From Balanoglossus misakiensis (lineage: Eukaryota > Animalia > Hemichordata), in assembly GCA_040954595.2 (NCBI GenBank), contig CM082578.2, positions 8,789,519 through 8,853,518 of the forward strand: a DNA stretch of 64,000 nt, in the 5' to 3' direction. Each line of letters opens with the position of its first letter. Positions within the stretch are counted from its first letter, which is position 1. Shown here piece after piece: positions 27,201 to 61,400 of the stretch. The position numbers and the translations under genes are program-made. The notes under the pieces are model-generated. The model had not been told where the DNA came from. It searched no databases and worked only from the letters and a program-made list of their open reading frames with translations.

Positions 27201-30200
27201 ACAGCCTGTTTTGTCAAGAGCCTATTTGATCAAAAGCCAACACCTAAATGTTCCACAATAAAACTGTCTGACCCTGTAAAACCATCCTATTATATTCAGT
27301 TGTGTGTGAGAAACAAAAAGGGCTGCTGTCCATTTGGACTGCTATTATGCCGAACAGGGGGTGTCAAGCCTTGGCCCTATCATCACCAATGCACAATCCT
27401 CCAGACACAACACCCTGTCACATGTTAAAACACATCTCTGATCGTGAAAACATACAGTATATTTCGGAAGATGTGGTTGTTTGAAATTAAAAGCAACTGA
27501 TATATAACTAACTGAGATGCGACTACAAGCTTAACATTCCAGTTCATTTTACAGAGAAGTGATACACATCATTAACGAGGAAAGAACTGAAAAAAATGCA
27601 ATATTTCTGTAATAAAAATCAATATCACCATCACATGCATTGTTTTCTTATTTATTAATTAATGAAAAGTTTTTGTGATATATGTTCTTTTTGTCGTAAA
27701 AATATTCAAGACCCTGCACAATAAATGTTCTTGTAATCGTAAAAATATTCAAGAGCTGTATCGCGGAGCTGTTTGGGTATTTCCATTGACAGTTTAACTA
27801 CAACTGTGCTATTTCAGGAATCTGCTACTGCAATAAAAAATCTGACTTGATGACAAGTTGCAAAGATTTTCATCTTGTCTTCATACATCGATAAATTGAC
27901 ATTTTTCCCTTTTTGGGTTTAATACTCCTTTGAAATTTTTGTGTTTTTTTTATCCACGCTGAAGTAGTTTTAAATACTTGAACTTAATGTACTATGTTCC
28001 AATAAATAAATGTCGGATTATCTCACAGATTAACTTTGCCTTTTTTTCCATTTTTTTTTCTTCATCTGAAATACTAAGCCTACACAGCAATGTCACTTCT
28101 TATGGAGAAGATTTATGTTGTTTCAAATGACCGTTTCAAATTTCTGTTCAAACTCTGATGCCCCTCTAAGTTTAACTTGAGTAGCTACATGTACGTGCCA
28201 GACAGTATGTTGGAAACCGGTTGTTTTTGTTGCTGTTCTAAAAATCCATCTGTACATATTCAAGTTATGGTATGTGTGCCATTCTACTCCCAGCAGAGGG
28301 CACGTCTGCCTCATAAATTTAATCCCTTTCAGAGTTTCCATAAAAAGCCAGCACGAATAGCTTTAATTAATATGGCCGATCTGATTCCATCTTCTCTGCA
28401 GAGGAAGCAGGGGGTCTAAGGGATTCAATGGCCTAGCTGATGACAGGCACCACGAGAGGGCGCTATTCAGATTCAAGTTTAACTCTCAGTCACTTGTGTT
28501 GCCACTGGTGATGTATCGCACAGGTCAAACAAGGTTGAAAACCTAGACGATGAACGTTTTTGTTTCTAACCGTTCCATTCTGCTCTAAGTTTCATTCTGG
28601 CAGCCAAAATATTTGAACTCGGGGGTAGATTTGGAATTTGTGAGTGAACTCTGGTGGAATAAAGAAAGTCATATTTACAATTTTAAATTTCAGCATGTAC
28701 AGTCTACGAACAAATTTTAAGGTACAGTGCTGCACCACACTGTACTGCAATTGCAACACTCCACACCTCTGATTTTCTGACCTTGACATTGCTAGGAAAC
28801 CAACTATTGGGTAGCCAGTGATCTTCTTGGTTCTTCTTGATATCGAGATTTGCACGCAGCTTTGACGTTTTCGACATGACTGGGTCTTCACAGAATGGTT
28901 TTCTACAAAACCTGCTACCACACTTGTGCCCTGAACTTTGGTCAAGTGTTGTTAGTTTTTTTTTTACTTCAAATTTGGCATGTAAAAACGTGGATACCAG
29001 ACACGATCACTACTTTGATCAGTGTCACAATTTAACTTGAACTTTAACCTCTGGCCGTTCAATGTCCCATGCTCAGTTTGACAGGGCTGAGTTAGTTCAG
29101 AGTGCTAAATTTGGCTGATATCTCTTCAAAACATGTGATATGATGAAACACATTGACCTAGAATTATTTGCACCAAAAACAAGAAAATCAGCAATGACAA
29201 TGTATTTTATGGGGACAGCAATAAAGTTTTCTAGTAACTTAAACACATTTTTTTTTCTGAACTAACAATATAAAGAACTTACATTTGGCATGCACCTTCA
29301 ATTATCAAATTCAACTTTCATTCATGACAGTATAAATTGGGGTCTCATAGCTAAACTAAATTACCTTTAAGTTTACTTTTTTTTAAAAACCCCTCCAAAT
29401 ATCAGAAATTTATTCAGGTGTACTATGCATTTGACAATGAACAGACAGCTTATTGGGTTGTGGACATTTTATGATTTTTACAAATCGCTTATTTTTTGGG
29501 GGAAATAGGACCTACACTTCATTGTCTCTTGTTACATCGTGTCAAAACCGGTCAGATTTTCACTTATAGCCTCTTGTCACCACTTACCTGGGGTACCAAG
29601 TCCTTCAAATTCCTTTTTTTCTGAGATCAACTTTTGCAGACCAGAAATAACTCCGGAAGAAGACGTATATCATAAGAGCCGGTATGATGACAGAGTAATT
29701 TGTAGATAGCAATAGAAACAGCTACTGTTACAAACGAGGGGAGCTCTCATGGCTGGCTGAACACGTAATGACATACCTACAAATCTTACACGTACCCAAT
29801 ATGCACATGTTATAATTATAATTCATGATGGGATTATTTCAGACACACTAAGGGGACCCGTTTTTAAACAAGTAAAAGTCATCTTAACTTTACACAAATT
29901 TTTCACTCAACTCAAGACGGTGTAGACATTTATGCCACTAAGAAGCAATTGGTGTTATTGAATTATCCCCATAGTGATAGCACAGTTTGGCAGCCATATT
30001 GGATTTCATTCATAACAAATAATGTGATATATTTGGATTTAACACTTTTCTAAAATGTTTACTAAAAGTGTGGTTGAGAATTGCATAATATGACTCAATA
30101 CAAAGTCACCACAGTGACAGAGGTAAAAGGGCCACTTTCGATTTTACTTGTGTTTCGCTTTTAACTTTGCAAAGATTTTTCTGAAAACAATTACACCTAT

Positions 30201-31466: not shown

Positions 31467-34400
31467 TAGACTGACAGACAGATAGACAGACAATCTGGGC
31501 TTACCACAACTTTGAATGGGCCACCAGTGATAGCCACGCCACCAAACTTGATGTCCAAGGTGTAACGCCCTGTAGCGGGACATGTCCAAACGATGTCGAA
31601 TGTACCATCGCCATTGTCGATCACTTTGACATCACCGACGTCGGTGCCGTCGGGTGCAGTCACTGTGGCTGTGACGCGTCCCTTGCCAGCGTCGCGGGAG
31701 TTCACCTTGATGACAGTTTCTTCGTGAACAGTGACAGTCTTGGTGATGGTCTCTCCTGCAGGGAAGGAAATAACAAAAAGTCAAAAATTTGAAGACAGAG
31801 AAAATGGCAATTGACAGGGAAAGGAATGACGCCTTTGCTGTAGGATTTGCATTAAAAAAAGACTAACTCTCACACGACGGAAAAATCAAACAGCACACAA
31901 ATGTTCAGTACTATAAAATCACATGACTGTCTCTCGCCCATAACAGTTGAAAAACCGACCAGCACTCAAAGCTGTGCGAGACGCACCAAGTTCCAAAGAT
32001 TCCAGTTCACATAACTTAGTTCCTTTTTCACTGCCGCAATATAACCAAACTCAAATTTCAAACAATCCGTCCGTTCAAATAACCACTAAAATTCCCCCCC
32101 TTGAGCGAGCTTCAGAAATGTATCCCCCCCCCCCCCAACAAGGCCCTGATTTGCTAGGAAAAACAGACGACCCACAGGTCGGTGGAAGAAGCCTCGCTGC
32201 CCAAAGAGGACACGGATCATGGTTCAGCCGAGAGAGAGCGAGAGAGAGAAGTGCTTAGAGAAAACTGGGCACAGTACTTCTAGGGTACATTCTTGACAAG
32301 GACAGAAAAATATATATACAGCAGGCAGAAAATACTTGTCAAACATTGCACAACTCAGACGGCACTTAATGCAACTGTGGAAAATCACTCTGGATCAGAA
32401 CACCATAACAGGTGCAGGGACTAAATATGGACAAGCCTCTGCCTCCAGTAATAAATGGACGGATTCAATTGTGAAATAAATGCTCATAATAAAACAATTT
32501 CAGAGGTCCAAAAATGGTTTTGGTCAGATCTCCAATTTCAACTTTGTCCAGAAAAAAATATAATTTTACAATTTGTGACATACATGTATCTTTTTAATCA
32601 ATAATTTGAAACGATGCAAAGATGTTTTCACATGTTGTCATGGCAATGCCATGACAACACATACAAACATGGCAATGACATGACAACATATACATGTAGT
32701 GTACTACCAAAGCCAGACCAGTACCCTCAGTATATAATGTCATATAGAAAATTGTCAGAATAGATTTCGTATTCTGAGACAGCCAGCGTGCCATACTCCC
32801 TGAATCACTTGAAATACAATCTACACAAACTATTCAGGGGGATAAAGACACACTCTGTCTGCAGCTTTCGCCCATAACTCATCCAACACACCCACACATC
32901 CCCACACAGTCATAGGATGAGTCAGTGTGAAATCACTCCATACCACCTACAGTGACTTTCCCAGACAATGAATATAATACACATATTTTCCTGTTTCTTT
33001 TTTTTAAAAAGGTGGAAAAAATGACAACATTTTCAAATGTGCAAAATGTGAAAACGACACTGTGCATTAACCAGTTGAACCCGACTCAGAAGAAAACTTC
33101 TAGGTCACAAGAGGGTCAGGGTTCAATAGGTTTAATAGTGAGGGGTAAATCGAAACAAGCATAACAAAAACACACAACAAGATGACGCTTGATTTCTACG
33201 ACTTTCTGAGTCAGGCAATGGTTATAGACAGGTATCTCTATGGAATAGCATATACATCTATATACATGCTGTTAGAGATGTATCTTATGGAATATGTTAT
33301 ATATAATATGGCCAAGTCCATTTTTTAACTGCATGCAGCTCTGTACGGAATAGGATAATATCAGTTAGTATAGAGAAAGTGTTACTGTATATTTTTGCAA
33401 AACAGCACTCATTAAAAACAACACGGGATTGCACACACGGCTGCTGCATGACATCTATTTTCTCTACAGCAGTGAAAGAGAGAAAACAAAAACAAAGAGG
33501 AGGGTCAGAAAGCCAGGGAGTCAGACACTGCACTGTTGCTATGGCAACTGACCGGCAATGAGGATGATGATGGTGATGTTGGTGGAGATGAGGCAGAGCC
33601 ATCTGAAACACAACTGTGAGCAGTTAATTATGTCTGGAGGAGGGTGCAAAATGGGGGGTGGGGGAGGGGTGGGGACAAAAACAAGTTTCGCAAACAGAAT
33701 GCAGTGAGTCTGTTATTATTATTTTGTTTTTTAAATCTCTATGGTTTGGGGGTTTCGGTTGTTCTCTTTTTTTTTTATTTATTCACTCCAGGAGAGAACT
33801 CCTTACTTGTAGTGGTTGTGGTGGTTGTTGTAGTTGAGGTGGATGCATAAGACGAGACAGAGCCCTCAGTGTCCGTGCTCATGCGTCTCACGATGGGAAT
33901 GTCCACGTCTCCACACTTAACACCTGTGAAATGGAATTAGAGGGGGGATAAAAGAAGGAAGGAACCGGGAGGAATGGCGTCAGTTATTCTGGTTATAAAA
34001 GACCTGAAAAAAGTCGAGCTTGTGGGGTATTTTTTCTTTATATAAGTCTGTATGGTTAGAATGAATCCTACCAAAGGCATCTGCAGTAGTTGGCATGATA
34101 ATGATCTCGTTGCAAATTGGGAACTGGCTACACTGTCACAAACTATTTTAAACCATCAGTTATGGTCCAATTTGTTAGGGCACGATTTTTGAATACCTTG
34201 TGTCAAATAAGTGATACAAGACCTCATGGCAAATGATCACAATGTTTATTTTTGCAATTGTAGAATTTCCAGGTATGTGTGTGCCCACCAAGACAACCAT
34301 GGGGCCCGGGGACCCCTTGGCATTGACAGAAGGATGCGAGAAAAATTTGCAAATAAAGCTGCAGATTCTTTAAGGGTTTTTACTGTATGCAGATATCTGT

Positions 34401-43400: not shown

Positions 43401-46400
43401 GTAGCGGCCGGGCTTCAGGGGGCGGTATCTCACGGTGAACGTGCCGTCGTTGTTGTTGACGATCTGGGCAGGCTCGTTGATGCCTCCTATTTATATGCAC
43501 ACAAAAAATAGCTTGCTTGTTTCTTTCAGTAAATGTGATACAAAATTATGTTGTTTTTTTCAATTTGTCACTAGAACTGTCTTTTGCGTTTGCAATTGAT
43601 AGCTAGTGTCCCAACACTGTTATGCTTGAATCACTCACACGCCATGAACACAGAAATCTTTTCCACACATGATATCTGAATCTTTTCTAAATGAAAGCAT
43701 GTTAATGGTGTACATTTCCTAATAGTTAAATCATTCAAGAACGTGACAAAAATGACAGGCGTCAAATTTGTTTATAAGAAATGACATCCTTTGCAGTATT
43801 AGACACACAGATGATTAGTATGAAAACACACTTAGCGGTGAAATCGTTGGTCTGAATAACACACTCAACGTTACAGTGAGACAGTTGAACCAAGTCATGA
43901 ATGCGTCAAACATAGCACAGCTCAAAGGGTTCTACTTCCTCCACACAGAGAACAAATTTAAGGGGGTCCCTATTCCCTCAACAACACAATCAAGCCAGTC
44001 CCCCGAAAAACTTGTGGAAAACAATTTTAACTAGAAACTTAAGGACAGAAGACCATGGTAAGACCACAGTATTCTCGAAAAGGAAACAGCCATTTGTTTT
44101 TATATAATTTTGAAAAGTTTGTGTTATCCCAAATGGAATATTTTTTTAAATCCATGACTTGTCATATTTGCTGTAATTGCAAATTCACAATTTTGATGAA
44201 GACAACACATAAGCAAATGAAACATGTTACATGATACAAATTGACTTGTAAACAACATCCAAACCAACAATAGCATGTCAGTGACAACAGTTGAGCCTGA
44301 TTATAAATGCATGACAGAATGGTACTTTTCGTTTGAATGTTTTTATTGTTTCAAATTAATGATTAGATATGGATGAACATTGTATATTTGAGTAATTCTA
44401 TGTAGTATTTTTATGAAATGTTAGAATGATCACCAATTGTCCGCTAATGTATACTGATGAAAGTGCATTAGCTACAGCTAGAGAATCTATTTTTGTGGAG
44501 GGAAGAAGTTAGTTTAGAGTATGAGCTCTTAAAGCTATGCTAGTATGAGTCAGACATGCACAGCTCGAAACCTTGACACCCCTAATTCTACATCAAATGG
44601 ACTAGCTATGCCTACGAACCAAATGCTACAAGAGCATCCCATTTCAACTAGAATCTGAGGGGTGGGAAGGTTGATATGAACACTGTAAAGAGGAGTGTAC
44701 CTGGACCAATGATTTGTACTCTGAGTTCGGCCTCCCCAGCTTCTTTAGTGTGCACGGTGAAGACGGCATCCTCTCTGACGCGGATACCCTTGGCCTGTAT
44801 GCCGCGTCCGGTGACGTAGGCTTTCTTGGGGTTGAACACTGCAAGACAAGGCGGAAGAAAAAAGAAAGTTACGTGGAGCTTAGAAATCCAGTCAATGACC
44901 CAAGGTTTGAGAATCATACCTTAATGCCATAACGATCACCTGCTATCGAATCCTTCCCACAGACATTCAGATCCATTACATGTACATCATTGAATGATTT
45001 ACTATAAACAAGTTATCAATTTCCCTTTCAACATGTAGTGGCATTAGACATGCATTTTGTATATGACCTTAAAACCATCCATTAGTCAGAAGAACATTCA
45101 TTTTGGACACATCCTTGTTATTCATTGAAAATGCAGCTCAGACTGCATTGCCATAGTGCTATATCCAGATTACCCTCACACATGCATGGAAAAATTGCGC
45201 CCATACATTATCCCCTTATCACAGTATCGCGCGTGCGTATATACCATATGAAAGAATCGCGCATATACATTCATAGTTGTCGCGCATGCAGCCAGCACGG
45301 AGACCTCATGCGGCAGTCATTTATCGCACCAACGGACCAAGCACCACAGAAATGGCACCATCGTACGGTCAAAATGACATTGCCTGCAGTTTTACCTGCC
45401 ACTACCCTGGCTCGGGCCGGAGCGCGTCTACGACCCAGCTCTTGTGCGGAGAATACACCATTGTGTCCCTCTGCAATGGCATATTTGCAAATTTTATAAC
45501 AATTTTAGTACTTCTACAATAAAATCTTTTCAAAATTATAAAAAGATTTTTTCCGCTTGGTTTTTTTTGGACATACATGTAGCATACTCACCTTCATTTT
45601 ATAAAATCACATGACAATACAATTAAAAACTTGATGTCTCACACGTGGCATATTTGTGTACTTGTTTGTTTTTGTAAATTTTGGAAATTTCATAATGTGA
45701 CACCAAAATTAAAACTGTGCAACTAACATGCAAGTGTGACTGTACATTTTGTTAGTATCAATTTCTCCCGTACTTGTCACCAAACACCATTTTGTTACCT
45801 GGTACAAGATCTTCTTCTATCACCTCAAAGCTGTGGTCTCTGTCAACACGCTCCAGGCTCTCTGGTATGGTAGATTCATGATATTGAAGAGTTTTTTTAT
45901 CCACAGAGATTATATCAAATTAAGAAAGTACAACCCTCCTATTCAAGGGCTGTCAATATTTTAGTTGATCAGAGATCAGAGAGATAAACTCCTGAAGCAA
46001 TGCCATGTTGATGGCTCAAAAAAGCTCATTGTATATGTAGAGACAGTCAAAACTTGAGCTGTGAGTGCCTACATACGGCATTCTAAAAGCCACCTGCTCA
46101 TGGCAGAATAGACCCAAATTTCATGATCCAATTAATGAACAATGCCGCTGGGTATCCTCTTTTATGTTTTAAGAGAGGCAGTTGTCATGACGATAGAAGA
46201 TAAACATCACACACCACAACACTATAATATTTCTTTCTTTATTTTGGAAGGTCTTGTTGGTGTAACATGTACAGGTATGTTATCAGTAAGATAAAAAAAT
46301 TTCACGAACAGCATGACAATTCTCATGTACCGACTCATTAAAACTGATGACCTGATATTTTCATTCTCTGAAGATTGTATAAGCTTGAGCAGAACACAAC

Positions 46401-49400
46401 AGTGACCCCAAAACACCAGGCAGTATTATGCAGCTCTGATAATTACCTGACAACAGAAACTCAACGTCCAGTGCACTTTCAATGTGTTCTTGGACCACTG
46501 GCATGATTTCTTCTTCTGGAAGGATCAGATTTCACAGATTGAGAAGACCAGGAATCAGATTTCAGATACCGTAACACATCATTTTCAGAAAACATACTCC
46601 ACTGACTGACTGACTTGTTTATTTCAGCACTGACGCGACAGTGACAAGTCAACATACAAACATGCCAAATCTAACACCTGAAAATGTCACAGTGAAATGC
46701 TGCAATGTTTCTATGTCAGCCTCTTTCATTTACCTTGAATAACATTCTCACTCTTCACAATCTCAGCACCATCTCCTTCCACAACTTTCCAGAACTCTTC
46801 TTCTGGTGAATGCAAAACAGACTTTTACCTCTTAGTGTCTTGTCTGTTATACCACCACTCAACATGTTGTGCTACCTAACGTTGCCCCAAATAATGGCAT
46901 TGTTATCCTTTTGACTGACATCATCAATGTAAATTAAAACCACCCTCATGTTCTGTGATACACCCACTACAACCTATCAGCCCACCTGTCCACCAAATAT
47001 ACCAGACCAACTGACCATACCAATGTGCTCACCAAAATGTTCTTTTCTCATTTTACCTGCTGCAAAATTCCTTTCAAATGACATCTTCACGGTCTGTTTG
47101 TCCACGTGGGAGATTTCCTCCTCTTCTGTTTCAGAAAACAAGACATCGTTCAGAAAGTCACCCCGTGTTCAAATTTGTGACTCAATCCCACGGAATGTTT
47201 AATCACACTGACTGCCAAAATCCCATGCTAGACCCTACTTGGTTCTGATCGCCTAGATGAGAAATGACTGTACCTCAATACTGCTAACAAGAAAGATACA
47301 AATTTGTGACCTGCCAATGTGCATGTTACGGTGCTGGAGAAAAACAGTGCTCAACCATTCACAGCATTGCTCATATATTGAGCAGGACACTTCAGTCATC
47401 ATCTTTGCACACTTTACCTGGTTGAAAGTATGTGATTTCTGTGCGTTCAATTCTTGGTGTTTCTGCTTGCTGTGTACCTTCAGTTCTTCTCTCAAACATC
47501 GTGTGAAATCTTTCTTCGATTTTGGATATACCCTTCCTTACAGTGGTGACTAGTTTTATACACAAAGACATTGGTTTACACAAAGTGTTCAGGAAAAGGC
47601 TTTGATGATCACGTTTGAAAACACCGCATCACTTCTTGGTTATGTCTTGAGGTGGAGGTATCTATCTCTCCAGGAGATGAATATTTTATGCATCGTCTTG
47701 CTTTGATTTTTCAACTGTTTTGCAATGAGTCAGAATTTTCCCACCAGTACATTGGTATTGAACTAATCACTTGATGTTAACAGAGATGATAGCCATGGAT
47801 GTTCAAAAGAAATACAAATGTGATTCACAAACGTTGATGTTACTATTATTCAATGCACCATTCAAGTGGTTTGCATGATACTATGCTATTCATAACTATA
47901 TACCGCTAACTGAACACTTAACAAGTACCTCCAGAAGATAAGACTTCACTGACTCCACTTTCTTGCACACTGACAGCTTCCTTTTCAAAGACAGTTTCAG
48001 GAGGTTCAGCTTCTGTTACAACATCTGATTCCAAGACAACCACAATAGGTTCTTCAACCAGAGTGGGTTCTTCTACCATTGCAAAGTCGCTTTCTATCAT
48101 GCCCAGACTTTGTTCTGATATGAGAACAGAGACCATTGTATCATGTGTGCATGGTTGTCTAATCGAGCAATAGAACACCACCTTAAAGTCCTGAGTTGAT
48201 AACAATATATAGTGTCATCCATGGCCCTGATACCTAGTGGCATCAATGCCTAACCGGTGCAAACCCTGTGAGCAGGGTGTTCATTGCCATATGTGTTATT
48301 CTGTTCTCCTAACAAACAGACAGTTAAAGGTAGAGTTGTACTGGAACATGAAAGAGTTGGACAGATTGAGAGTCCATAGAAAGTCTTCAGACAAGATGCA
48401 TATAGTTGTAAACCAGTGAAGATAATATTCGCTTTCCACCAGGTATTATCCGGTGGTAATGAATGTGAAACATCTTGTCTTGTGTCCACTTCATCACCGT
48501 TCCCCAACCAGTGTATGTGCGTATACCAAACATATAACAATCAGGGATGTTCACTGTTTACCTGGTTCAACACTGACTTCAACTGCACTTTCGATTCTTG
48601 GCTGTTCAGTTACTTTCACAACTTCTTCCTGTTCATCAACTGCGTCTTTTTTCATCAATGACTGAAACCTCTCTCCAATTTGAGTGAAACCACTCTTGAC
48701 CACCGTGACTGGTCCACACAAATAATGCAAAAATATCATGATTACAATCTCTGCTTAATCATACCAAATACAACAATGATAGAGATCAGTCCACTTTTAA
48801 TTTTGTACCAATGGGAGCTGACAAACACCAGACAAATTTATAACCATACTTTCCCACCAATCATCTTACACAACATGTACCTGTTCTAGACATTATTTTA
48901 GTGTTGCTTTCATAATCTTGATCTTCTGATTCTTGTAAACTGACTGTAGCCTTTTCTAAGATGATTTCTGGAGGTTCAGCTTCAGTTACAACATCTGTTT
49001 CCAAGACAACCACAGCAGGTTCTTCAACCAGAGCAGGTTCTTCTACCATTGCAAAGTCGCTTTCAATCATGCCCACACTTTGTTCTGGTGTACGAGAACA
49101 TGGACCACTTAATATTCATTCCATAGTCTTTGGACAATGTGCACAATTGTACATCTGTCAAGCTAGTATCCACGTTCTGCCAAGTATTATGGCAGTAATG
49201 AATGCAAAACGTCTTGTGTATTGTCAAATTCATCACCATGAACCCATCCCGGTGTGTGTGCATATACCAAACATATAGCCATCCAAGCCAATGTTCACTG
49301 TTTACCTGGTTGTAAATTGACTGCGATTGCACTTTCAATTGTTGGTTGTTCAGTTACTCTGATAACATCTTCTTCCTGTTCATCAACTGTGTCTTTTTTC

Positions 49401-52400
49401 ATCATTGACTGAAACCTCTCTCCAATTTGAGTGAAACCTCTCTTAACCACAGTAACTGATTTACACAAAGAATGGGAAAATATCATGGTTACAAATTGAT
49501 CTAATCATACCAAAGTCAACACTGATAGCAACTGTTCCACTTTAGATTTTGTACTGATACTAATAGGATCAGACAAAATTCTAACCACACATTGCCACCA
49601 ACAATTTCGTACAACATGTACCTGTTCTAGATGTAATTTTAGTGTTACTTTCATGATCTTGATCTTCTGGTTCTTGTAAACTGACAGTAGCCTTTTCAAC
49701 AATAATTTCTGGAGGTTCAGCTTCTGTTACAACATCTGTTTCCAAGACAACCACAGTAGGTTCTTCAACCAGAGCAGGTTCTTCTACCATTGCAAAATCG
49801 CTTTCAATAGTGCTCAGACTTTGTTCTGGTGTACAAGAACAAGGGCCAGTTCATAAAATTTTCCCAGTTTGGTTACATCTACCTACTCTTTCAACCACCA
49901 TGACAAATGACAGAAAACAACCAAGTCCTGAGTAGACGTACAACACAAGTGTTATCCATGTCCCTGATACCTAGTGGCATCATTGCCAAACCAATGTAAA
50001 CCATGTGAGCAGGGTGTTCAGTGCCATCTGTTATTCTGTACTCATAACAAGAAGACAGCTACATTGTAGGTAGAGATGTACTGGAACAAGACAGAGTTGG
50101 ACAGAGTAAGATTCCATAAAAAGTCTTTGAAAACCTGTGAACATAACATTCACTTTCCAACGAGTATTGGTATTTGGCAGTAATGAATGTGATACATCTT
50201 GTTTTATGTTAACTTCATCAAAATGCACCCACCACAGTGTATGTGTGTGTACCAACATCACCCCTACTAATCAAACAGGGATGTTCACTGTTTACCTGGT
50301 TCAACACTGACTTCAACCGCACTTTCAATTCTTGGCTGTTCAGTTGGTATCACAACTTCTTCCTGTTCATCAACTGTGTCTTTTTTCATCATTGACTGAA
50401 ACCTCTCTCCAATTTGAGTAAAACCTCTCTTAACCACAGTGACTGCAGGTTTACACAAATAATTCAAAATTATCATGGTTACTAAATCATCCATTTATCA
50501 AAAATCTCTGCTGAATCATAACAAATTCAGCAACGATGAAAATCGTTCCATTTTTGATTTTGCACCGAAAGGATCAGACAACAGACAGACATATTCCTAA
50601 CCACACTTTCCCCACCAACAATTTTGTACAACATGTACCTGTTCTAGATGTAATTTTAGTGGTGCTTTCATCATCTTGATCTTCTGGTTCTTGTAAACTG
50701 ACAGTAGCCTTTTCAACAATAATTTCTGGAGGTTCTGTTTCTGTTACAACATCTGTTTCCAAGACAACCACAGCAGGTTCTTCAACCACAGTGGGTTCTT
50801 CTACCATCGCAAAATCGCTTTCAATCATGTGCAAACTTTGTTCTGATACGAGAACAAGGACCAGTTTATCACTATTCCAAACTGATTACATCTACTGTAC
50901 TCTACCACATCAACCACCATGACAAACAGAAGAACACCACCAAGTCCTGAGTTGGTAACATCTGTGTTATTTATTTCTCTGACACCTTCTGGTATTATTG
51001 CCAAACCATGTGAGCAGTGTGTTCAGTGCAATCTGCTCTACTGTACTCATCACAAGAATACAGCAGACAGAGGCGTACTTAAACGTGAAGGAGTTAGACA
51101 AGGTCAGAGTGAGATTCCGCAGAAAGTCTTTGGGCAAGGTGCATAGTCGTAAACCAGTGAAGATAACATTCGCTTTCCACCAAGTAATCTGGTGGTAATG
51201 ACTTTGAAACACCTTGTCATGTATCAAATTCATCACAGTGTGTCAGTGTAAGTGTGTGTGCGTACATGTACACCAAAATCACCAAACATACACCCATCCT
51301 AACAAACAGGATGATCACTGTTTACCTGGTTGTAAATTCACTGCGATTGCACTTTCAATTCTTGGTTGTTCAGTAACTTTGATCACTTCTTCTTCCTGTT
51401 CATCAACTGTGTCTTTTTTCATTATTGACTGAAACCTCTCTCCAATTTGAGTGAAACCTCTCTTAACAACTGTGACTGGTTGGGTGGCAAGACAAAAATG
51501 AGATGTTTACAACTTTATAGGAACATCTGCAGGCTGAACTTGACTACATTCGATCACCATCTAATGAACACCATTACCGAAGCACTACAACACCACAGCT
51601 GGTGCAACATGTAAACCAGTTACGGCTTACAAATAAAAACATGTTCTGCATAGACTTTCCATGGGTTTACCTGTTCTGGATGTAATTTTAGTGTTACTTT
51701 CACCATCTTGATCTTCTGGTTCTTGTAAAGTCACAGTAGCCTTTTCGAAGACGATTTCTGGAGGTTCAACTTCTGTTACAACATCTGTTTCCGAAACAAC
51801 CACGGTAGGTTCTTCAACCAGAGCAGGTTCTTCTACCATTGCAAAGTCGCTTTCTATTATGTTCACACTTTGTTCTGATATGAGAACAAAGATCACGAAA
51901 TCAGGTTTGCATACAGCGTCAGTCTAATCTACCAACCAACATGACAAATGGCAAAAACCACAAGTCCTGAGTTATACATGTACTGGTGCCTAAGAAGTGT
52001 GAACAATGTCAGCGATGTGTTCAATGCAATCTGTTCTTCTGAACTCATGACGAGAAAACAGCAAAGTAGTGATGTCCTGGAATATGACAGAGTTGGACCG
52101 ACACAGATAGAGTGAGATTCCATAGGACGTCATTAGACAAGCTGCATACCAGTAGTTGTAAACATGTGAAGATAACATTTTCTTTCCACAAAGTATGATT
52201 TGGTCCTAATGAATGCAAAACACCTTGTCCTGTGTCAGATATCATCACCACGAACCCACCACAGTATGTGTGCGTATACCAAACATATAGCCATTCTAAG
52301 CAATCTGGGATGTTCACTGTTTACCTGGTTGTAAATTGACTGCAATTGCACTTTCAATTCTCGGCTGTTCAGTTACTTCCTCAACTTCTTCATGTTCCTC

Positions 52401-55400
52401 AACTGCTTCTTTTTTCATCATTGACTGAAACCTCTCTCCAATTTGAGTGAAACCTCTCATAACCACGGTGACTGGTTTACACAAATAATGCAAAGATATC
52501 GTGGTTACAAATTGATCCAATCACTAAAACTGATTTTGTACTAGCAGGATTAGAACAAAACAAGACATACAGTATTTTGAAACACATTTTCCCACCAACA
52601 ATTTTGTACAACATGTACCTGTTCTAGATGTAATTTTAGTGTTACTTTCATAATCTTGATCTTCTGGTTCTTGTAAACTGACTGTAGCCGTTTCTAAGAC
52701 GATATCTGGAGGTTCAGCTTCAGTTACAACATCTGTTTCCAAGACAACCACAATAGGTTCTTCAACCACAGTGGGTTCTTCTACCAATGCAAAGTCACTT
52801 TCAATCGTGCTCAGACTTTGTTCTGGTGTACAAGAACAAGGGCCAGTTCATAAAATATTCACAAACAATCAACCACCATGACAAATGACAGAAAACCACC
52901 AAGTCCTGAGATGAAGTACAACACAAGTGTTATCCATGTTCCCGATACCTAGTGGCATCATTGCCAAACCAATGTAAACCATGTGAGTAAGGTTTTCAGT
53001 GCCACCTGTATTCTGTACTCGATCATAACAAGAAGACAGCAAGGTAGAGTTGTACTGGAACATGAAAGAGTTGGACACAGTAAGATTACACAGAAAATCT
53101 TTAGACACGTTGCCAGTTGCAAACCTGTCCAGCTTACATCCACCTTCCACCAAAACTCGCACTCTGAGGGTATTGAATGCAAAACGCCATGTATATTGTC
53201 AAATTCATCACCACGAACCCACCACAGTGTGAGTGCATATATCCAACATAAAGCCATCCTAATCAAGCACGGATGTTCACTGTTTACCTGGTTGTAAATT
53301 GACTGCAATTGCACTTTCAATTCTTGGCTGTTCAGTTACTTCCGAATCGATCACTTCTTCTTCCTGTTCACCAACCGTGTCTTTTTTCATCAATGACTGA
53401 AACCGCTCTCCAATTTGAGTGAAACCTCTCTTAACCACGGTAACTGGGTTTTATGCAACACAAAAAGGGTACCTTGACGATTTGATAGCAACATCTGTGA
53501 CAAAATCAGGCTAATTTTCCACAACTGGTCCGAAGGTACAACACACTACACCTGGTGTAAGATGTAAACATGTCACAATGCTTATAAACAAAAACATTGT
53601 CTGTATCCACTTTCCATGGGTTACCTGTTCTAGATGTAATTTTAGTGTCATTTCCGTCGCCTTGATCTTCTGCTTCTTGTAAACTGACTGTGGCCTTTTC
53701 TAAGATGATTTCTGGAGGTTCAGCTTCCGTTACCACATCTGTTTCCAAGACAACCACAGCAGGTTCTTCAACCACAGTGGGTTCTTCTACCATTGCAAAG
53801 TCGCTTTCTATCATGCCCAGACTTTGTTCTGGTGTACGAGAACAAGGGCCAGTTCATAAAATATTCACAAACCGGTTACATCTACCGTATTCCATCAACC
53901 ACCATGACAAATGACAGAAAAGCACCAAGTTCTGAGTAGACAACACAAGTGTTATCCATGTCCGGATACCTCAGTGGCATCATTGCCCATCCTGTGCAAA
54001 CCATGTGAGTAGTGTGTCCAGTGAAATGTGCTTTAATTTCTGTATTCAATTAGAATACAGCAAGGTAGAGTTGTTTTTTGAATGGGACTGAGGTGGACAG
54101 ACATGCCACTGAAAATATGGACAAATGTAGGACTACAGAACTGTCAAGGAAGACAATTACACCCTCCACCCGAGATATTTGGTGACCATGACTTCAAGGC
54201 ACCAGGTTTCACATCAGGCAAACTCATTTTGCACCCAAGTATGTTAGTATGTCCCGGTATATACCGAACATGTTACCCATCCAATAATTGCCACCGTTTA
54301 CCTGGTTGTAAATTGACTGCAATTGCGCTTTCAATTCTTGGCTGTACAATTACTCTGATCACTTCTTTTTCTTCCTGTTCACCAACTGCATCTTTTTTCA
54401 TCATTGACTGAAACCTCTCTCCAAGTTTAGTGAAACCTCTCTTAACCACAGTCACTGGTTCATGGAACACAAAGAGCATAGGCTGACAATCTGAACATTT
54501 TCAGTGCAGAGACAACAAACTTTCCACCACACCTGTTAGATCTTTCATATACTGAACACTTTATGACTGACAAGAATATATTTCCAAGTCAAGTTTATAC
54601 ACAAAACACCAAACCCCAAAAGACAAAATCTGTAGATGAAGTCACTCCATGTAAATAAATGACATTTCCACTAACAGCTATATGCACCGCTTTTGTTCCA
54701 TGACAGTTACCTGTTCCAAATGCAAATTTTGTGCTACTTTCATCGTGTTCAGCTTCTGTTTCTTGAACACCGACAACATCCTTTTCCGAAACAACATCAG
54801 GTTCTTCAACTACTGTAATCTCTCCTGCATGCTCGCGACCACTGCCTCTGCCCCGTGTCACAATTGTGTGGAACTTTCCCTCGATGGCTGTCAAACCTCT
54901 TTTCACTAAGGAAGCTGAGAGGTAAAGATAACTCAGAGTACACAATCATGATTCTCCCAAAGAATTTCAAGATTGTGGAGAACAGATAAAAAGAAAAATA
55001 GTAGCATCTGCAAATCAGGCTGACGATCAAGCAAAGGCAAAACAAGAAAGAAGGAAGCAACAACAAATCATGGATGCTGGACTGACCCAACAGAGTACGT
55101 GAATGTTTAAGAGGAGAGGAGTTTGATTTGCCCAAAAGCAACATTCAGTATCTCGACGTTGTCATGCAACAGCATCGGAAGAAGAGAACAGTACTAAGGG
55201 TTAGAGTAGACAGGTTTGTGTCACCCAAAGATCCCATTTAAGACACTGTGTGTCACTCAACCAAACCGGAAGAACTCTGAATGTATTCTTGTACCTCTCG
55301 TTTTCTTGGGGATAACTTGGACTTCTATTGGGATGTTCTTGACAAAGACGGTGATGAGAGTTTCCACTCGGACATGTATCCGTACTTTCAAGCCACCAGT

Positions 55401-58400
55401 CAAGGAAAACATAGCCAAACGTCAGGATAACGACTAATTAAACGATGAACTTGTAAGTATTCCCACCAAAACTATACATGTAAGTGCTGCCATGGTCATT
55501 GCTATAACACAACATGCATATACATGTACAATGGACCCTGGTCCCTCATATCATCCAGATCAGAACAACAATATGTCAGAGGTGTGTAGTATGCCATATC
55601 TGTTAATGTGGGACTGTCCAACCACCAGCGAAGCAAAACAAGAAAGCAGCAAGAAAATCAACCAAAATAAAATTACATTTGACTATACACACTGCCACAA
55701 AGATATACTAATGTTTCAGATGTGCATGTGCATGTGCATGTGATTGAACCTATCCTCATCACCACATGGATTCACAATAATACCTGGTGGGAAATTCTTT
55801 TGTTGGACGCTCTCAATTCTGGGTTCTATGCGAAGTGTAATGATCCCTTCTTCTTGTCCCTGCCTTCTTGGGCTGACATCCTTTGTCACCATGGAAACAG
55901 GTTTGTTTACCTTCTTTCTCACTGTGGTTACTGGTTTATCAGATACAGACACAGGCGTCATGGTTTATATAGTGCATGAGGCATGTCTATCAACTGACCA
56001 ATGCCCCCCAATTCGACAGTAATTGTTCAAAAGAATTTATAAAAAATACATGCTTCTCTCAGCAGAACATGTAACAAACAAAAATTCTTATATAATATAG
56101 TATAATTCTCCTTCTGGTATATGATTCAGATAATCCAATCTTTATCAACTACCTTCTCTCGTCCAACATTAATATTTATTGCATAATATCATATGAACCT
56201 GTGACAGATATCATAAAAGTACACAACTGAAGTGCTGTGAACTCTTTTCTTTTCAGTACCTGTTGTAATTATCATCTCCCCAGAGTCTTCCCAACCTCTG
56301 ACCACTCTTTCTCGCAAACTGACATTGTCCATTGTAAAATCCTCTTCAATGATGGAGGCATTTTGTTCTAACAAGTGAATAAAGCGCATTATGCATTCCA
56401 TGACTGAGAGTCATTTAAATCATGGCTTGCTTTTCACTGGAAAAATATTTCGTCAAACACCAGATAATGTAAGAACATTTTCAGTTATGAAACGTGCCAC
56501 CAAACAGAGCTATACCCCAGACCAACACATACAATTGTGCATCTAGCCATGTACACCAGTACAAATACACCCCTATGCTTGAATGTACGTTTTACCTGCT
56601 TCTTTTAAATCAATCACCATTGCACTATAGACCCTGGGTTCTCTTTCGGTGGACAAGGAAACTTCACCTTCGTGACTACTGTCTGTTCTCTGTGCAACGG
56701 CTGAGGATAACTCGATTGTTGGTTCAGAGTTTCCTTTTATAATGAGTGTGACTTTTTTCAAAAGGAAAAAAGGGAAAGAATTACTCTGGATGATGATGAT
56801 GAAGCAACTTTGTAGAATGCCGTTATCATCATTTAAAAAAAAAAGTCAATACAACTATGGTATAACGAAAAAAAATTCAAGTACTAAGAGGGATAATTCA
56901 ATCCGTCTTTATTGAATCCAAAAAGATCAGCTTCATATTATTATTATTTTCATGTATTATTCACAGCCAATCCTACCTGCTGGAAAATTCATCTCAGTGG
57001 TATTTTCATTATTGGTTTCCTCAGGTAATGTGACTTCCTCCTCTACAACTGTGACACTGGACTCCACAGGAATAGAGACCTCTTTCTCCAAGATGGTCAC
57101 GCTTGGCTCTTCAGGTAATGTGACTTCCTCCTCTACAACTGTGACACTGGACTCCACAGGAATAGAGACCTCTTTCTCCAAGATGGTCACGCTTGGCTCT
57201 TCAGGTAATGTGACTTCCTCCTCTACAACTGTGACACTGGACTCCACAGGAATAGAGACCTCTTTCTCCAAGATGGTCACGCTTGACTCTTCAGGTAATG
57301 TGACTTCCTCCTCTACAACTGTGACACTGGACTCCACAGGGATAGAGACCTCTTTCTCCAAGATGGTCACGCTTGACTCTTCAGGTAATGTGATTTCCTT
57401 CTCAATAACTGTGACACTGGACTCCACAGGGATAGACACCTCTTTCTCTAAGATGGTCACGCTTGACTCTTCAGGTAATGTGACCTCCTCCTCTATAACT
57501 GTGACACTGGACTCCACAGGGATAGACACCTCTTTCTCTAAGATGGTCACGCTTGACTCTTCAGGTAATGTGACCTCCTCCTCTATAACTGTGACACTGG
57601 ACTCCACAGGGATAGACACCTCTTTCTCCAAGATGGTCACGCTTGACTCTTCAGGTAATGTGACCTCCTCCTCTATCACTGTGACACTGGACTCCACAGG
57701 GATAGACACCTCTTTCTCCAAGATGGTCACGCTTGACTCTTCAGGTAATGTGACCTCCTCCTCTATCACTGTGACACTGGACTCCACAGGGATAGACACA
57801 TCTTTCTCTAAGATGGTCACGCTTGACTCTTCAGGTAATGTGACCTCCTCCTCTATAACTGTGACACTGGACTCCACAGGGATAGACACCTCTTTCTCCA
57901 AGATGGTCACGCTTGACTCTTCAGGTAATGTGACCTCCTCCTCTATCACTGTGACACTGGACTCCACAGGGATAGACACCTCTTTCTCCAAGATGGTCAC
58001 GCTTGACTCTTCAGGTAATGTGACCTCCTCCTCTATCACTGTGACACTGGACTCCACAGGGATAGACACATCTTTCTCTAAGATGGTCACGCTTGACTCT
58101 TCAGGTAATGTGACCTCCTCCTCTATAACTGTGACACTGAACTCCACAGGGATAGACACCTCTTTCTCTAAGATGGTCACGCTTGACTCTTCAGGTAATG
58201 TGACTTCCTCCTCTAGAACTGTGACACTGGACTCCACAGGGATAGACACCTCTTTCTCTAAGATGGTCACGCTTGACTCTTCGGGTAATGTGACTTCCTC
58301 CTCTAGAACTGTGACACTGGACTCCACAGGGATAGACACCTCTTTCTCTAAGATGGTCACGCTTGACTCTTCAGGTAATGTGACCTCCTCCTCTATAAGT

Positions 58401-61400
58401 GTGACACTGGACTCCACAGGGATAGACACCTCTTTCTCTAAGATGGTCACGCTTGACTCTTCAGGTAATGTGACTTCCTCCTCTACAACTGTGACACTGG
58501 ACTCCACTGGGATAGACACCTCTTTCTCCAAGATGGTCACGCTTGACTCTTCAGGTAATGTGACCTCCTCCTCTATAACTGTGACACTGGACTCCACAGG
58601 GATAGACACATCTTTCTCCAAGATGGTCACGCTTGACTCTTCAGGTAATGTGACCTCCTCCTCTATCACTGTGACACTGGACTCCACAGGGATAGACACA
58701 TCTTTCTCTAAGATGGTCACGCTTGACTCTTCAGGTAATGTGACCTCCTCCTCTATAACTGTGACACTGGACTCCACAGGGATAGACACCTCTTTCTCCA
58801 AGATGGTCACGCTTGACTCTTCAGGTAATGTGACCTCCTCCTCTATCACTGTGACACTGGACTCCACAGGGATAGACACCTCTTTCTCCAAGATGGTCAC
58901 GCTTGACTCTTCAGGTAATGTGACCTCCTCCTCTATAACTGTGACACTGGACTCCACAGGGATAGACACCTCTTTCTCTAAGATGGTCACGCTTGGCTCT
59001 TCAGGTAGTGTGACTTCCTCCTCTATAACTGTGACACTGGACTCCACAGGGATAGACACCTCTTTCTCTAAGATGGTCACGCTTGACTCTTCAGGTAATG
59101 TGACCTCCTCCTCTATAACTGTGACACTGGACTCCACAGGAATGGAGACCTCCTTTTCCAAGATGGTCACAATTGACTCTTCAGGTAATGTGATCTCCTC
59201 CTCTACAACTGTGACACTGGACTCCACAGGGATAGAGACCTCTTTCTCCAAGATGGTCACGCTTGACTCTTCAGGTAATGTGACTTCCTTCTCAATAACT
59301 GTGACACTGGACTCCACAGGGATAGACACCTCTTTCTCTGACACAGCGTAATTGGTCTGTTCTGGCAATGTCACTTCATTCTCCGTGACAGCGACAGTTG
59401 AACTGCCATGCTGACTGACACTGCGTTTGACCGAGGTAAAAGTTGATGACTGTGATGTTGAGAAGCTGCTCCTTGTGCTTGAGAAGACGGACCCTCCTTC
59501 AATGGTGGAATTCTTGGTGGTATCTTTCTCTGAGGCAGTGATACTCGACAGTTCAGGCAGTGTGACTTCCTTCTCGGTGAGAGTGACAGAGGACCGGCCA
59601 GGTAATGTGACGTCTTTTTCTATGATAGTGACATTTGATTCTCCTTGCTGAGTGCCATCTCGCCTCTCTGAATAGAAACTGCTTGACTTTGTTGTAGTTG
59701 TTGATGTTGTTGAGATACTTTCCCTCATTCTAGTGGAGACCGACCCCCCTTCCAGTGTAACATCCTTGGTGCTAAAACTAGACTGGGATATTGATGGAAG
59801 CATGGTCGTCGTAGTTTCGCCCTTTTCTATAATGGTGATGGTTCTCTTCCCTGGTTCCCTGACCTCCTTCTCAAGAACAGTCGTCATGGACTTTTCTGGC
59901 GCCTTCATCCCATCCTTCTCGACGATCGTAACAGAGGAATATGCGGCTATAGTAACAACATTGGAGGAGGCATGTTTATGGTGGAACACACTTGACTATT
60001 GTGTGAAAAAACAAAATACTGCATGTGCCTATCCTGATCTGGATTTGAAGTGTCATGGTTCAATCACCAGCACTTTCACAAAGGTTAAGAATTGATGATA
60101 AATGGGGAACAGTTTTCACTGTGTGTGCACTGAGTAGATTAGCAATTAGGACAATACATCTCAATGATGTTCTGCTGTAGTCAACAAAATATACCTAGTA
60201 TGTTTAGTCTAGAAGGTTGTGGGCAAGTCAATTTTCGTACCCGGTTGAGCCGTTCACCTTCACCAGACAGTATAACTGTTTACCTTGCCGAGATCTGATC
60301 TTCTTTTCACTTTGCACCCTTCGCACTTCTGTGCTGGTAGTCTCGTTTTGCATGAACATGCGACTGCGCTGTTCAATGAACGATGAAGTCTGACGGCGCG
60401 CTGACACACAAGGTTGAAATGAGAAGAAAATCAGGTCGTGATGTCATCGTTGAACGGACTGAACTGGACGACTACTGGTACTGAACATATCCCTCTCTCC
60501 AACCGAACGTGCAACTGACCGCTGTTAGATTGTGGTGCTTCAGTTGTGTTCAACGAAATAATTCTGGGTGAAGTGCAACACCTGTCCGCGGGTGTAATCA
60601 GTGGATGTTTCCAGGTGCAACCCTCCACGTTCCCAGGTGCACCCTGTGTGTACTGGTATGTCAGGGTGCAATCTGGATATGTCACATATCAGAGGCACTG
60701 CCTGTACACATCACTTGTGCACCCGATCTGTCTGTAACAGTGTCAACATCTGCTCTCACTGACATGAATATAGTTGTTGGTATGGTGGGGTTAGTATCTC
60801 TTTGCTGACAAAACGCAGCCCTGTACACCAAAAGTCAGAGTGCCTCCCGATGGTCCCCACTGTGAATTTTGTTTTATTTCGTTTACCTGGTGGGAATGCC
60901 ATCTTGCTGTTTCTAACCTGCTCTGTCGCAGATGAGCTGAAAACCAGCCCATTTCCTGAATTGGATTCAGACAACATTTATGATGAAAGGCAGCGTTAAT
61001 TCCTTGACAAATCAAAAACTCACCAGCCAAAGTTAATGGCAACATAACTTTACATAAGAAATATATATCTGTTATCACAACCACTGAAAAAAATCTTCAT
61101 CTGTAACCTATAAATGGTGTGTGACAAGATGTTCAGGTCTGACGATAACCTATTATCATCAAAACAAATACACAAATATGCCATTTGGGACTGGACCCTT
61201 AAGAATACATTATAATCTTTTATCACTAACTTAACTGCCCATGCACTGCTGGGCATTTTATAAGACAGTGAATTTGGCTATTCCCCCTTCACCACTACCA
61301 ATTCAGTCCACCTCTTACTGTTGATAGTGTGACCTGACCCTGAAATGGCTATCAAATCAAGCGCTGCTCGCTGCTGTAGAATATCTCCGCTTGAATCTCG

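Follow-up and report, generated by a model that had tools for sequence, protein, structure and literature searches.

Filamin is usually viewed as an actin cross-linker of fixed length, with force sensing in its C-terminal rod. Canonical members (human FLNA, FLNB and FLNC, Drosophila cheerio and Caenorhabditis elegans FLN-1) share CH domains, tandem Ig repeats, a hinge before the second rod, class A repeats and a C-terminal repeat. Here we describe a filamin gene on the minus strand of a 64,000-nucleotide (nt) stretch of DNA from the hemichordate Balanoglossus misakiensis (GenBank assembly GCA_040954595.2, contig CM082578.2, positions 8,789,519–8,853,518; hereafter the window, numbered from its first letter), studied in this one genome and at the level of sequence. 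The gene shares this organization, with only the last exon of its CH region inside the window, and differs in carrying 23 rather than 24 repeats and, at the Ig2/Ig3 junction, a predicted optional insert that is not of Ig type and could reach 2,266 amino acids (aa). At this level of analysis, the array that encodes the insert is real, selected and apparently lineage-specific, and it consists of coding cassette exons within a canonical filamin.

Several described systems resemble parts of this arrangement. The PEVK region of titin, a giant cytoskeletal protein, is built from many small symmetric exons with tandem duplication, and its sequence is proline-rich and dominated by P, E, V and K. Mammalian FLNA likewise has a regulated exon, the poison exon N (which we take to lie in intron 9, at the Ig2/Ig3 junction), but it is a single, decay-triggering exon and not a coding array. 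Its repression by PTBP1 has been reported (PMC8652244, PMC13542418 and PMC5816070). The FLN-2/jitterbug type has long regions of low homology and many isoforms (3,747 aa, PMC3143143; 27 isoforms, PMC12966323); this subfamily, comprising C. elegans FLN-2 and Drosophila jitterbug, is divergent and has three CH domains, whereas the host gene here is a canonical filamin with an insert made up of a single block of symmetric cassettes. Further isoforms of C. elegans filamins (fln-1b/c and fln-2b/c/d) arise from internal starts and early ends (PMC3143143), and those of fly cheerio span 90–260 kDa, with no such insert mentioned in the excerpted text of PMC5521747. CD44 provides a lineage-specific run of new Esrp-controlled exons, at least nine in mammals (PMC5703972), but these encode an extracellular receptor stem, whereas the present exons belong to an intracellular actin cross-linker and their Esrp control is predicted.

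A cassette array in the Ig2/Ig3 intron

A constitutive exon model, built from tblastn of 120 filamin records and inspection of splice sites, places one filamin in the window, running on the minus strand (as do all features below unless stated) from position 63896 at the end of the second CH domain (CH2) to a stop at position 65. Its 32 constitutive exons give 2,271 aa with a single terminal stop. The exon that ends Ig2 (61544–61744, phase 1-1; Pfam Filamin, E = 8.8 × 10^-12) and the exon that starts Ig3 (44701–44838, phase 1-1; a Pfam Filamin match corresponding to the initial residues of Filamin-A chains 4m9p and 6ew1) flank a 16.7-kb intron, and joining them directly yields an ordinary filamin, as an earlier note on this DNA had proposed. 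An independent rebuild of the intron arrived at the 28 AG/GT segments and the total of 6,798 nt that the note had given. All 28 are phase 1-1, stop-free and divisible by three in length (63–2,970 nt), and the acceptor and donor of each match the host intron in phase, so that 28 of 28 have the equal phases, open frame and splice signals of symmetric cassettes. The last base of all 29 upstream exons is G, and no cassette junction can therefore create a stop. With every cassette included the frame extends to 4,537 aa, again with a single terminal stop, which bears out the suggestion that the protein could nearly double in length. The complete insert has a mass of 250 kDa and a net charge of −326; a profile of filamin Ig9 finds 23 repeats in the host filamin and none inside the insert, in agreement with its description as non-Ig. 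These properties support the view that the segments are coding cassette-type exons fitting in frame between Ig2 and Ig3, and they are probably spliced into the filamin messenger RNA at this junction. Approximately 230–265 aa of the N-terminal part lie outside the window, judging from the start points of homolog alignments, and the full-length proteins would thus be about 2,500 aa (cassettes skipped) and about 4,770 aa (all cassettes included).

The 28 cassettes are not independent, as a two-exon unit composed of a B exon (147–156 nt) and an A exon (186–204 nt) is repeated in tandem seven times and accounts for 14 of them. The B exons, recognized by copy comparison and a filamin-ligand-like motif at their ends, are cassettes 9 (B1, 54302–54454), 11 (B2, 53288–53443), 13 (B3, 52325–52471), 15 (B4, 51326–51475), 17 (B5, 50296–50442), 19 (B6, 49306–49455) and 21 (B7, 48562–48708), with a variant of the motif in B5 and B7. 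Copy comparison also identified the A exons as cassettes 10 (A1, 53625–53828; 204 nt, acidic), 12 (A2, 52619–52822), 14 (A3, 51671–51874), 16 (A4, 50639–50842), 18 (A5, 49622–49825), 20 (A6, 48881–49084) and 22 (A7, 47929–48114; 186 nt, with an in-frame 18-nt gap). Upstream of these units, the array begins with cassette 1 (60887–60955, 69 nt; acceptor 5.3, donor 8.9) and the basic, R/S/Q-rich cassette 2 (60284–60400, 117 nt; donor 7.6), followed by cassette 3 (56977–59946), a giant exon of 2,970 nt with 73 and 37 stops in its other frames, which encodes an S/T-rich head of about 206 aa followed by a 30-aa (90-nt) E/V/S/T/I repeat present in about 26 copies. Cassettes 4 (56596–56751, 156 nt; Z 6.6 to cassette 15), 6 (55784–55930, 147 nt; Z 6.0 to cassette 9), 8 (54711–54914, 204 nt, or 195 nt from 54905; Z 5.9–7.2), 23 (47418–47549, 132 nt; Z 9.0–9.6) and 26 (46447–46515, 69 nt; Z 4.3 to cassette 9) are related to A or B but have diverged (Z 4.3–9.6 overall); cassettes 4, 6 and 23 are B-like, and cassette 8 is related to both. 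The remainder are cassettes 5 (56260–56367, 108 nt), 7 (55295–55384, 90 nt), 24 (47057–47125, 69 nt; donor 8.6), 25 (46734–46802, 69 nt; donor 8.1), 27 (45799–45861, 63 nt; donor 8.3) and 28 (45396–45470, 75 nt, basic; donor 8.6, with three UGGUG downstream). Donors are weak in cassettes 5, 6 and 22, the doubtful cassette 7 is weak at both ends (acceptor −1.6, donor 1.1), and in-frame alternative acceptors occur at 54905/54914, at 56367/56403 (cassette 5) and as tandem AGs in cassettes 24–26; the count of 28 is therefore soft by two or three. Cassettes 24–26 (46447–47125) are three successive 69-nt exons with tandem in-frame AG acceptors, and are probably old duplicates of each other, with marginal similarity.

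Two alternatives concern the ends of the array. The exons could be real and belong to a truncated isoform, made either from an internal promoter (cassettes plus Ig3 onwards, without the head) or by an early end after the head, Ig1–2 and cassettes. Internal starts and early ends do occur in filamin genes (C. elegans, PMC3143143; Drosophila cher), cassettes 1–4 contain in-frame Met codons and the sense strand of the region has six AATAAA; against this, the acceptor of cassette 1 is good (5.3) and the donor of cassette 28 strong (8.6), both in the host phase, and the last intron of the region has neither a stop-bearing exon nor a polyadenylation (polyA) signal, which makes such an isoform an improbable account of the block. 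The second alternative, a separate nested gene on the same strand or decayed repeats in which splice signals arose by chance, draws on the repeat-rich nature of the insert and on its having no homolog that we found. It is highly improbable given that neither a first nor a last exon of another gene is evident in the region, as the note had also reported, that the uniform phase of the segments is that of the host intron and, for decay, given the coding constraint described below. Rfam gave no matches across 44000–62000.

Coding constraint and growth of the array

The 16.7-kb region has 32 strong donors (score ≥7), and 20 of these are cassette ends. The longest open run upstream of strong donors is in phase 1 for 22 of 32 in the insert, compared with 7 of 21 for the hinge intron, and a blind scan returned phase 1-1 pairings in 18 of 32 versus 2 of 17, respectively. 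The same scan found 23 phase 1-1 pairings on the opposite strand of the insert, which we attribute, probably, to the antisense frame of the 90-nt repeat staying open. This antisense open frame (811 codons, plus strand, 56916–59351) lies over the repeat and is most likely its by-product.

Comparison of the A and B copies separates exons from introns: identity is 87–88% in exons versus 66% in introns, and gaps are divisible by three in 4 of 4 cases in exons versus 14 of 63 in introns. The ratio of nonsynonymous to synonymous substitution (dN/dS) among copies is 0.44 for A, 0.37 for B and 0.25 for the giant repeat, and there is an excess of synonymous variants in each (P = 0.0096, 0.0017 and 0.0019, respectively) when each distinct codon variant is counted once. 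Protein-coding constraint was thus found for the 14 A and B exons and the giant repeat, which is the range of the test, the remaining 13 exons being without close enough copies. Because of this constraint, decayed repeat DNA is excluded as the source of the A, B and giant exons.

The array grew by tandem duplication, to seven copies of the two-exon unit and 26 copies of the 30-aa unit. Duplication of the A/B units by the assembly was rejected, as the copies are 12–13% diverged; the copy number of the 90-nt repeat, which is 96% identical, could be mis-assembled. Mutually exclusive splicing of the Dscam type was also rejected, since lengths are all multiples of three and introns at least 147 nt; it is further disfavoured by the alternation of A and B and by the open frame that all 28 exons keep together.

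Splice-site strength and an intronic UGGUG motif

Cassette donors are nearly as strong as those of constitutive exons (median score 8.6 versus 9.0), whereas their acceptors are far weaker (1.9 versus 7.9). A strong donor combined with a weak acceptor is the pattern expected for exons that are skipped by default, and the weak acceptors place the cassettes in it. The introns of the array are also marked by a short motif. TGGTG occurs 55 times in 8,979 nt of insert introns (10 times on their antisense strand) versus 46 times in 39,351 nt of other introns, and UGGUG lies within 130 nt downstream of the donor in 22 of 28 cassettes versus 4 of 31 constitutive exons; it ranks first of 1,024 5-mers downstream of cassette donors (Bonferroni-corrected P = 3 × 10^-4). 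These UGGUG/GGUG elements (44839–61543), candidate enhancers of the ESRP type, fall for the most part within the 5′ halves of introns downstream of cassettes. Motifs of RBFOX, QKI, MBNL, PTB and NOVA, and GUGUG, showed no enrichment in the insert introns.

The Esrp motifs reported in PMC4566030 are UGGUGG, GGUGGU and GUGGUG, and downstream binding favours inclusion. In the contrast of cassettes with constitutive exons, these three hexamers occur 30 times in 6,281 nt versus 3 times in 7,193 nt. The downstream introns are thus UGG-rich, as for ESRP-enhanced exons, a signal that becomes weaker once duplicates are removed. Esrp programs exist in sea urchin and vertebrates, and include an Esrp-dependent cluster of CD44 exons (PMC5703972). 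The intronic motif hints at an ESRP-type (epithelial) regulator over a muscle one, and a mechanism in which the cassettes are skipped by default and an ESRP-like factor brings about their inclusion in epithelia is one to which we would give slightly less than an even chance.

The block could instead be constitutive in this species, giving a giant filamin in which nothing is tuned. Its donors are as strong as constitutive ones, its introns are of ordinary size (147–588 nt), and a loose form of the ligand-like pattern treated below is recreated at six of six A-to-B junctions, which suggests that runs are spliced in order. Set against the far weaker acceptors, the dedicated intronic motif and a skipped junction that aligns without gaps to 36 of 42 filamins, these points leave a constitutive block quite improbable.

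Composition, fold and ligand-like motif of the insert

The insert consists of E (19%), V (16%), S (11%), T (10%) and I (7%), among others, with only 5.6% Pro. Both it and titin PEVK comprise many small symmetric exons with tandem duplication; because P, E, V and K together reach 45% and Pro is so low, the insert is not a PEVK sequence, and the likeness to titin drawn in the note does not extend to membership (FoldIndex is near zero). It further differs from PEVK in its E/V/S/T/I composition, in having no muscle splicing motifs and in having no sequence link to it. AlphaFold of one B exon gave mostly coil with one short helix (predicted local distance difference test score (pLDDT) 62), and a Foldseek search with a model of the giant repeat gave no match at E ≤ 0.001.

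These data bear on the rival view of a titin-like muscle spring, in which the exons are combined by splicing in muscle to give a plain entropic spring that tunes stiffness, with UGGUG and the ligand-like motif as coincidental features. It is in keeping with the symmetric phase 1-1 exons, which are placed in series along the load path, with the charge of −326, with a contour of about 860 nm if unfolded, with negative FoldIndex values in the A exons and small cassettes, and with the presence of filamin at the Z-disc in fly muscle (PMC5521747). The low Pro content, the lack of enrichment of RBFOX, QKI, MBNL and GUGUG motifs, and a beta-prone composition with a repeating beta model are not, and we consider a muscle spring rather unlikely. 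We infer that the insert could have a spring role.

All seven B exons end in an 11-residue alternating hydrophobic pattern, in two variants that differ at 5 of 11 positions and both retain a ligand pattern of alternating hydrophobics, S/T at +2 and Pro at +10. This pattern fits the FilGAP peptide printed in PMC2654154, where residues 0, 2, 4, 6 and 8 face the groove and Pro is at +10, and likewise the peptides of migfilin and integrin beta1 shown in PMC3197140; a weakened migfilin mutant does not satisfy it. Seven matches in B exons compare with 0.37 expected (background, 7 in 238,512 aa). A looser form occurs in cassettes 4, 7 and 26 and at the A-to-B junctions, and is not significant once copies are collapsed (P = 0.07). 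In filamins, repeats 4, 9, 12, 17, 19, 21 and 23 are of class A, and repeat 21 is self-blocked by a strand of repeat 20, so that a strand of filamin itself already blocks a CD face (PMC7714767 and PMC10164935). The insert is located one repeat ahead of Ig4. By pattern match, the B-exon motifs are possibly ligands of class A repeats; they share with FilGAP, migfilin and integrin beta1 the alternating hydrophobics, S/T at +2 and Pro at +10, but differ in that the predicted strands are optional, sevenfold and near the N-terminal Ig3–5 unit.

Comparison with other filamins

Among 42 filamin records with the Ig2/Ig3 junction (records of up to 2,000 aa), 36 join Ig2 and Ig3 directly and none has an insert of the cassette type. 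Three of the other six look like intron read-through in the models, one is uninformative and two have a Pro/Lys-rich insert. The note had stated that vertebrate filamins lack an insert at this site; this needs correction, because Pro/Lys-rich inserts of about 40 residues are present there in three FLNC-type models, from a gecko (P0042), a cod (P0059) and a croaker (Filamin-C, P0110). All three carriers are predicted models, and the source flags P0042 as UNVERIFIED_CONTAM. The inserts are alike among themselves (Z 5.2–13.0), show no similarity to the cassettes (best score 23–29) and are missing from six cavefish models and one Komodo dragon model (P0046, P0054 and P0162–P0166). The FLNC-type insert therefore resembles the present one in its junction and in being present or absent among models, but it is short, Pro-rich and basic; it looks like a conserved optional exon, and on this evidence vertebrate filamins use the Ig2/Ig3 site on a small scale. 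Limited literature searches returned no description of either an insert such as ours in a canonical filamin or the FLNC insert.

Searches with the insert itself were largely negative. A word-index search spanning proteins of up to 2,000 aa (longer annotated filamin isoforms are outside that range) gave 22 matches to the first 300 aa of the giant exon, none covering its unique head; a Pfam scan of 21 of them revealed no filamin domain, and the remaining one was read by eye. A profile of the B exons matched none of 7,997 candidates (proteins of 91–2,000 aa). Searches with the insert gave no matches in PDB sequences and a best value of 0.78 in the ESM Atlas, which is under the useful range. Pfam returned for the giant exon just a compositional match to DUF2804, with no passing stretch, and metagenome scans gave zero and two distant loci (L001 and L002, not used). 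The insert appears to be lineage-specific.

Host gene and neighbouring features

The host gene groups with FLNA/B/C and cheerio. In a quick tree (26 rows out of 35 candidates, with no jitterbug, amphioxus, hemichordate or echinoderm row), it is sister to the tunicate and vertebrate filamin rows (SH-aLRT 96), a position that would suit an invertebrate deuterostome, and its second rod is 61–63% identical to vertebrate filamins. The 23 tandem Ig repeats and the hinge exon (8980–8875) are likewise those of a canonical filamin. Only the last CH2 exon (63896–63768) is within the window, and it aligns to filamins just ahead of Ig1. There is apparently one repeat fewer between the Ig5 and Ig8 equivalents (42554–41798) than in the 24-repeat vertebrate filamins; the numbering against FLNA is in part presumed.

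Phase 1 is found in 25 of 31 constitutive introns, and many constitutive filamin exons are hence themselves symmetric. A candidate additional phase 1-1 cassette (33807–33923, 117 nt; acceptor 10.0, donor 9.0; open and S/T-rich) sits in a 4.3-kb intron (36036–31756). Hinge 1 is where short filamin isoforms begin in fly and worm. The hinge 1 intron of this gene spans 22.5 kb (8981–31504) and has strong orphan donors at 29588, 18709 and 15799, which could end alternative first exons or, at 18768–18709, a 60-nt 0-0 cassette.

Implications for filamin biology

The explanation that we favour, with somewhat better than even confidence, is that the 28 segments form a co-regulated cassette block in the Ig2/Ig3 intron, probably switched by an ESRP-type factor, that would give a long filamin in which an acidic spacer adds as much as 250 kDa and carries several predicted filamin-binding strands. 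Several observations weigh against it. The dN/dS values are well above the expectation for a folded domain, and the pairwise values are not independent. The UGGUG enrichment was found post hoc; with duplicated exons removed, TGGTG falls to 9 of 14 versus 4 of 31 (P = 9 × 10^-4) and no 5-mer passes Bonferroni correction (best 0.066). Six cassettes, including the giant exon, have no UGGUG within 130 nt, and other proteins also bind GU-rich RNA. In 14 of 28 cassettes UGGUG is found on the upstream side as well, a position from which ESRP is said to act as a silencer, partly because the introns are short (37 in 5′ halves and 17 in 3′ halves). Disorder is ambiguous (FoldIndex +0.02 over the whole insert), and AlphaFold modelled six giant repeats as a low-confidence beta-strand repeat (pLDDT 57.5). 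The ligand pattern was composed after the B exons were in view, becomes one event when duplicates are collapsed (P ~0.04) and is failed by the giant repeat and the A exons. No protein record searched (up to 2,000 aa) shows cassettes joined to filamin.

Under the favoured explanation, an included run would lengthen the cross-link, since the actin-binding head and the dimerising rod would be linked through it in series; that it would form a largely non-globular spacer, lengthening and softening the cross-link, is about an even prospect. A more tentative proposal is that the B-exon motifs dock on class A repeats at their CD face, either in cis or on a different filamin molecule, the adjacent Ig4 being one such repeat. 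In its most extended form, which is unlikely to hold in full, an epithelial ESRP-type switch would turn a filamin of ~265 kDa into isoforms of up to ~515 kDa with an acidic tether bearing at least seven ligand strands; splicing would then set both the reach of the cross-link and the number of class A repeats that are blocked in cis or, through filamin self-assembly, bridged in trans, and the Ig2/Ig3 intron would be a hot-spot of long standing that vertebrate FLNC and FLNA each exploited independently. ESRP-type control and built-in ligand strands are specific, testable leads. An optional 250-kDa segment in series behind the actin-binding head would alter the reach and stiffness of filamin and the force at its sensor. 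Should the B-exon strands prove to bind class A repeats, splicing would also supply competitors or cross-bridges from within the protein itself.

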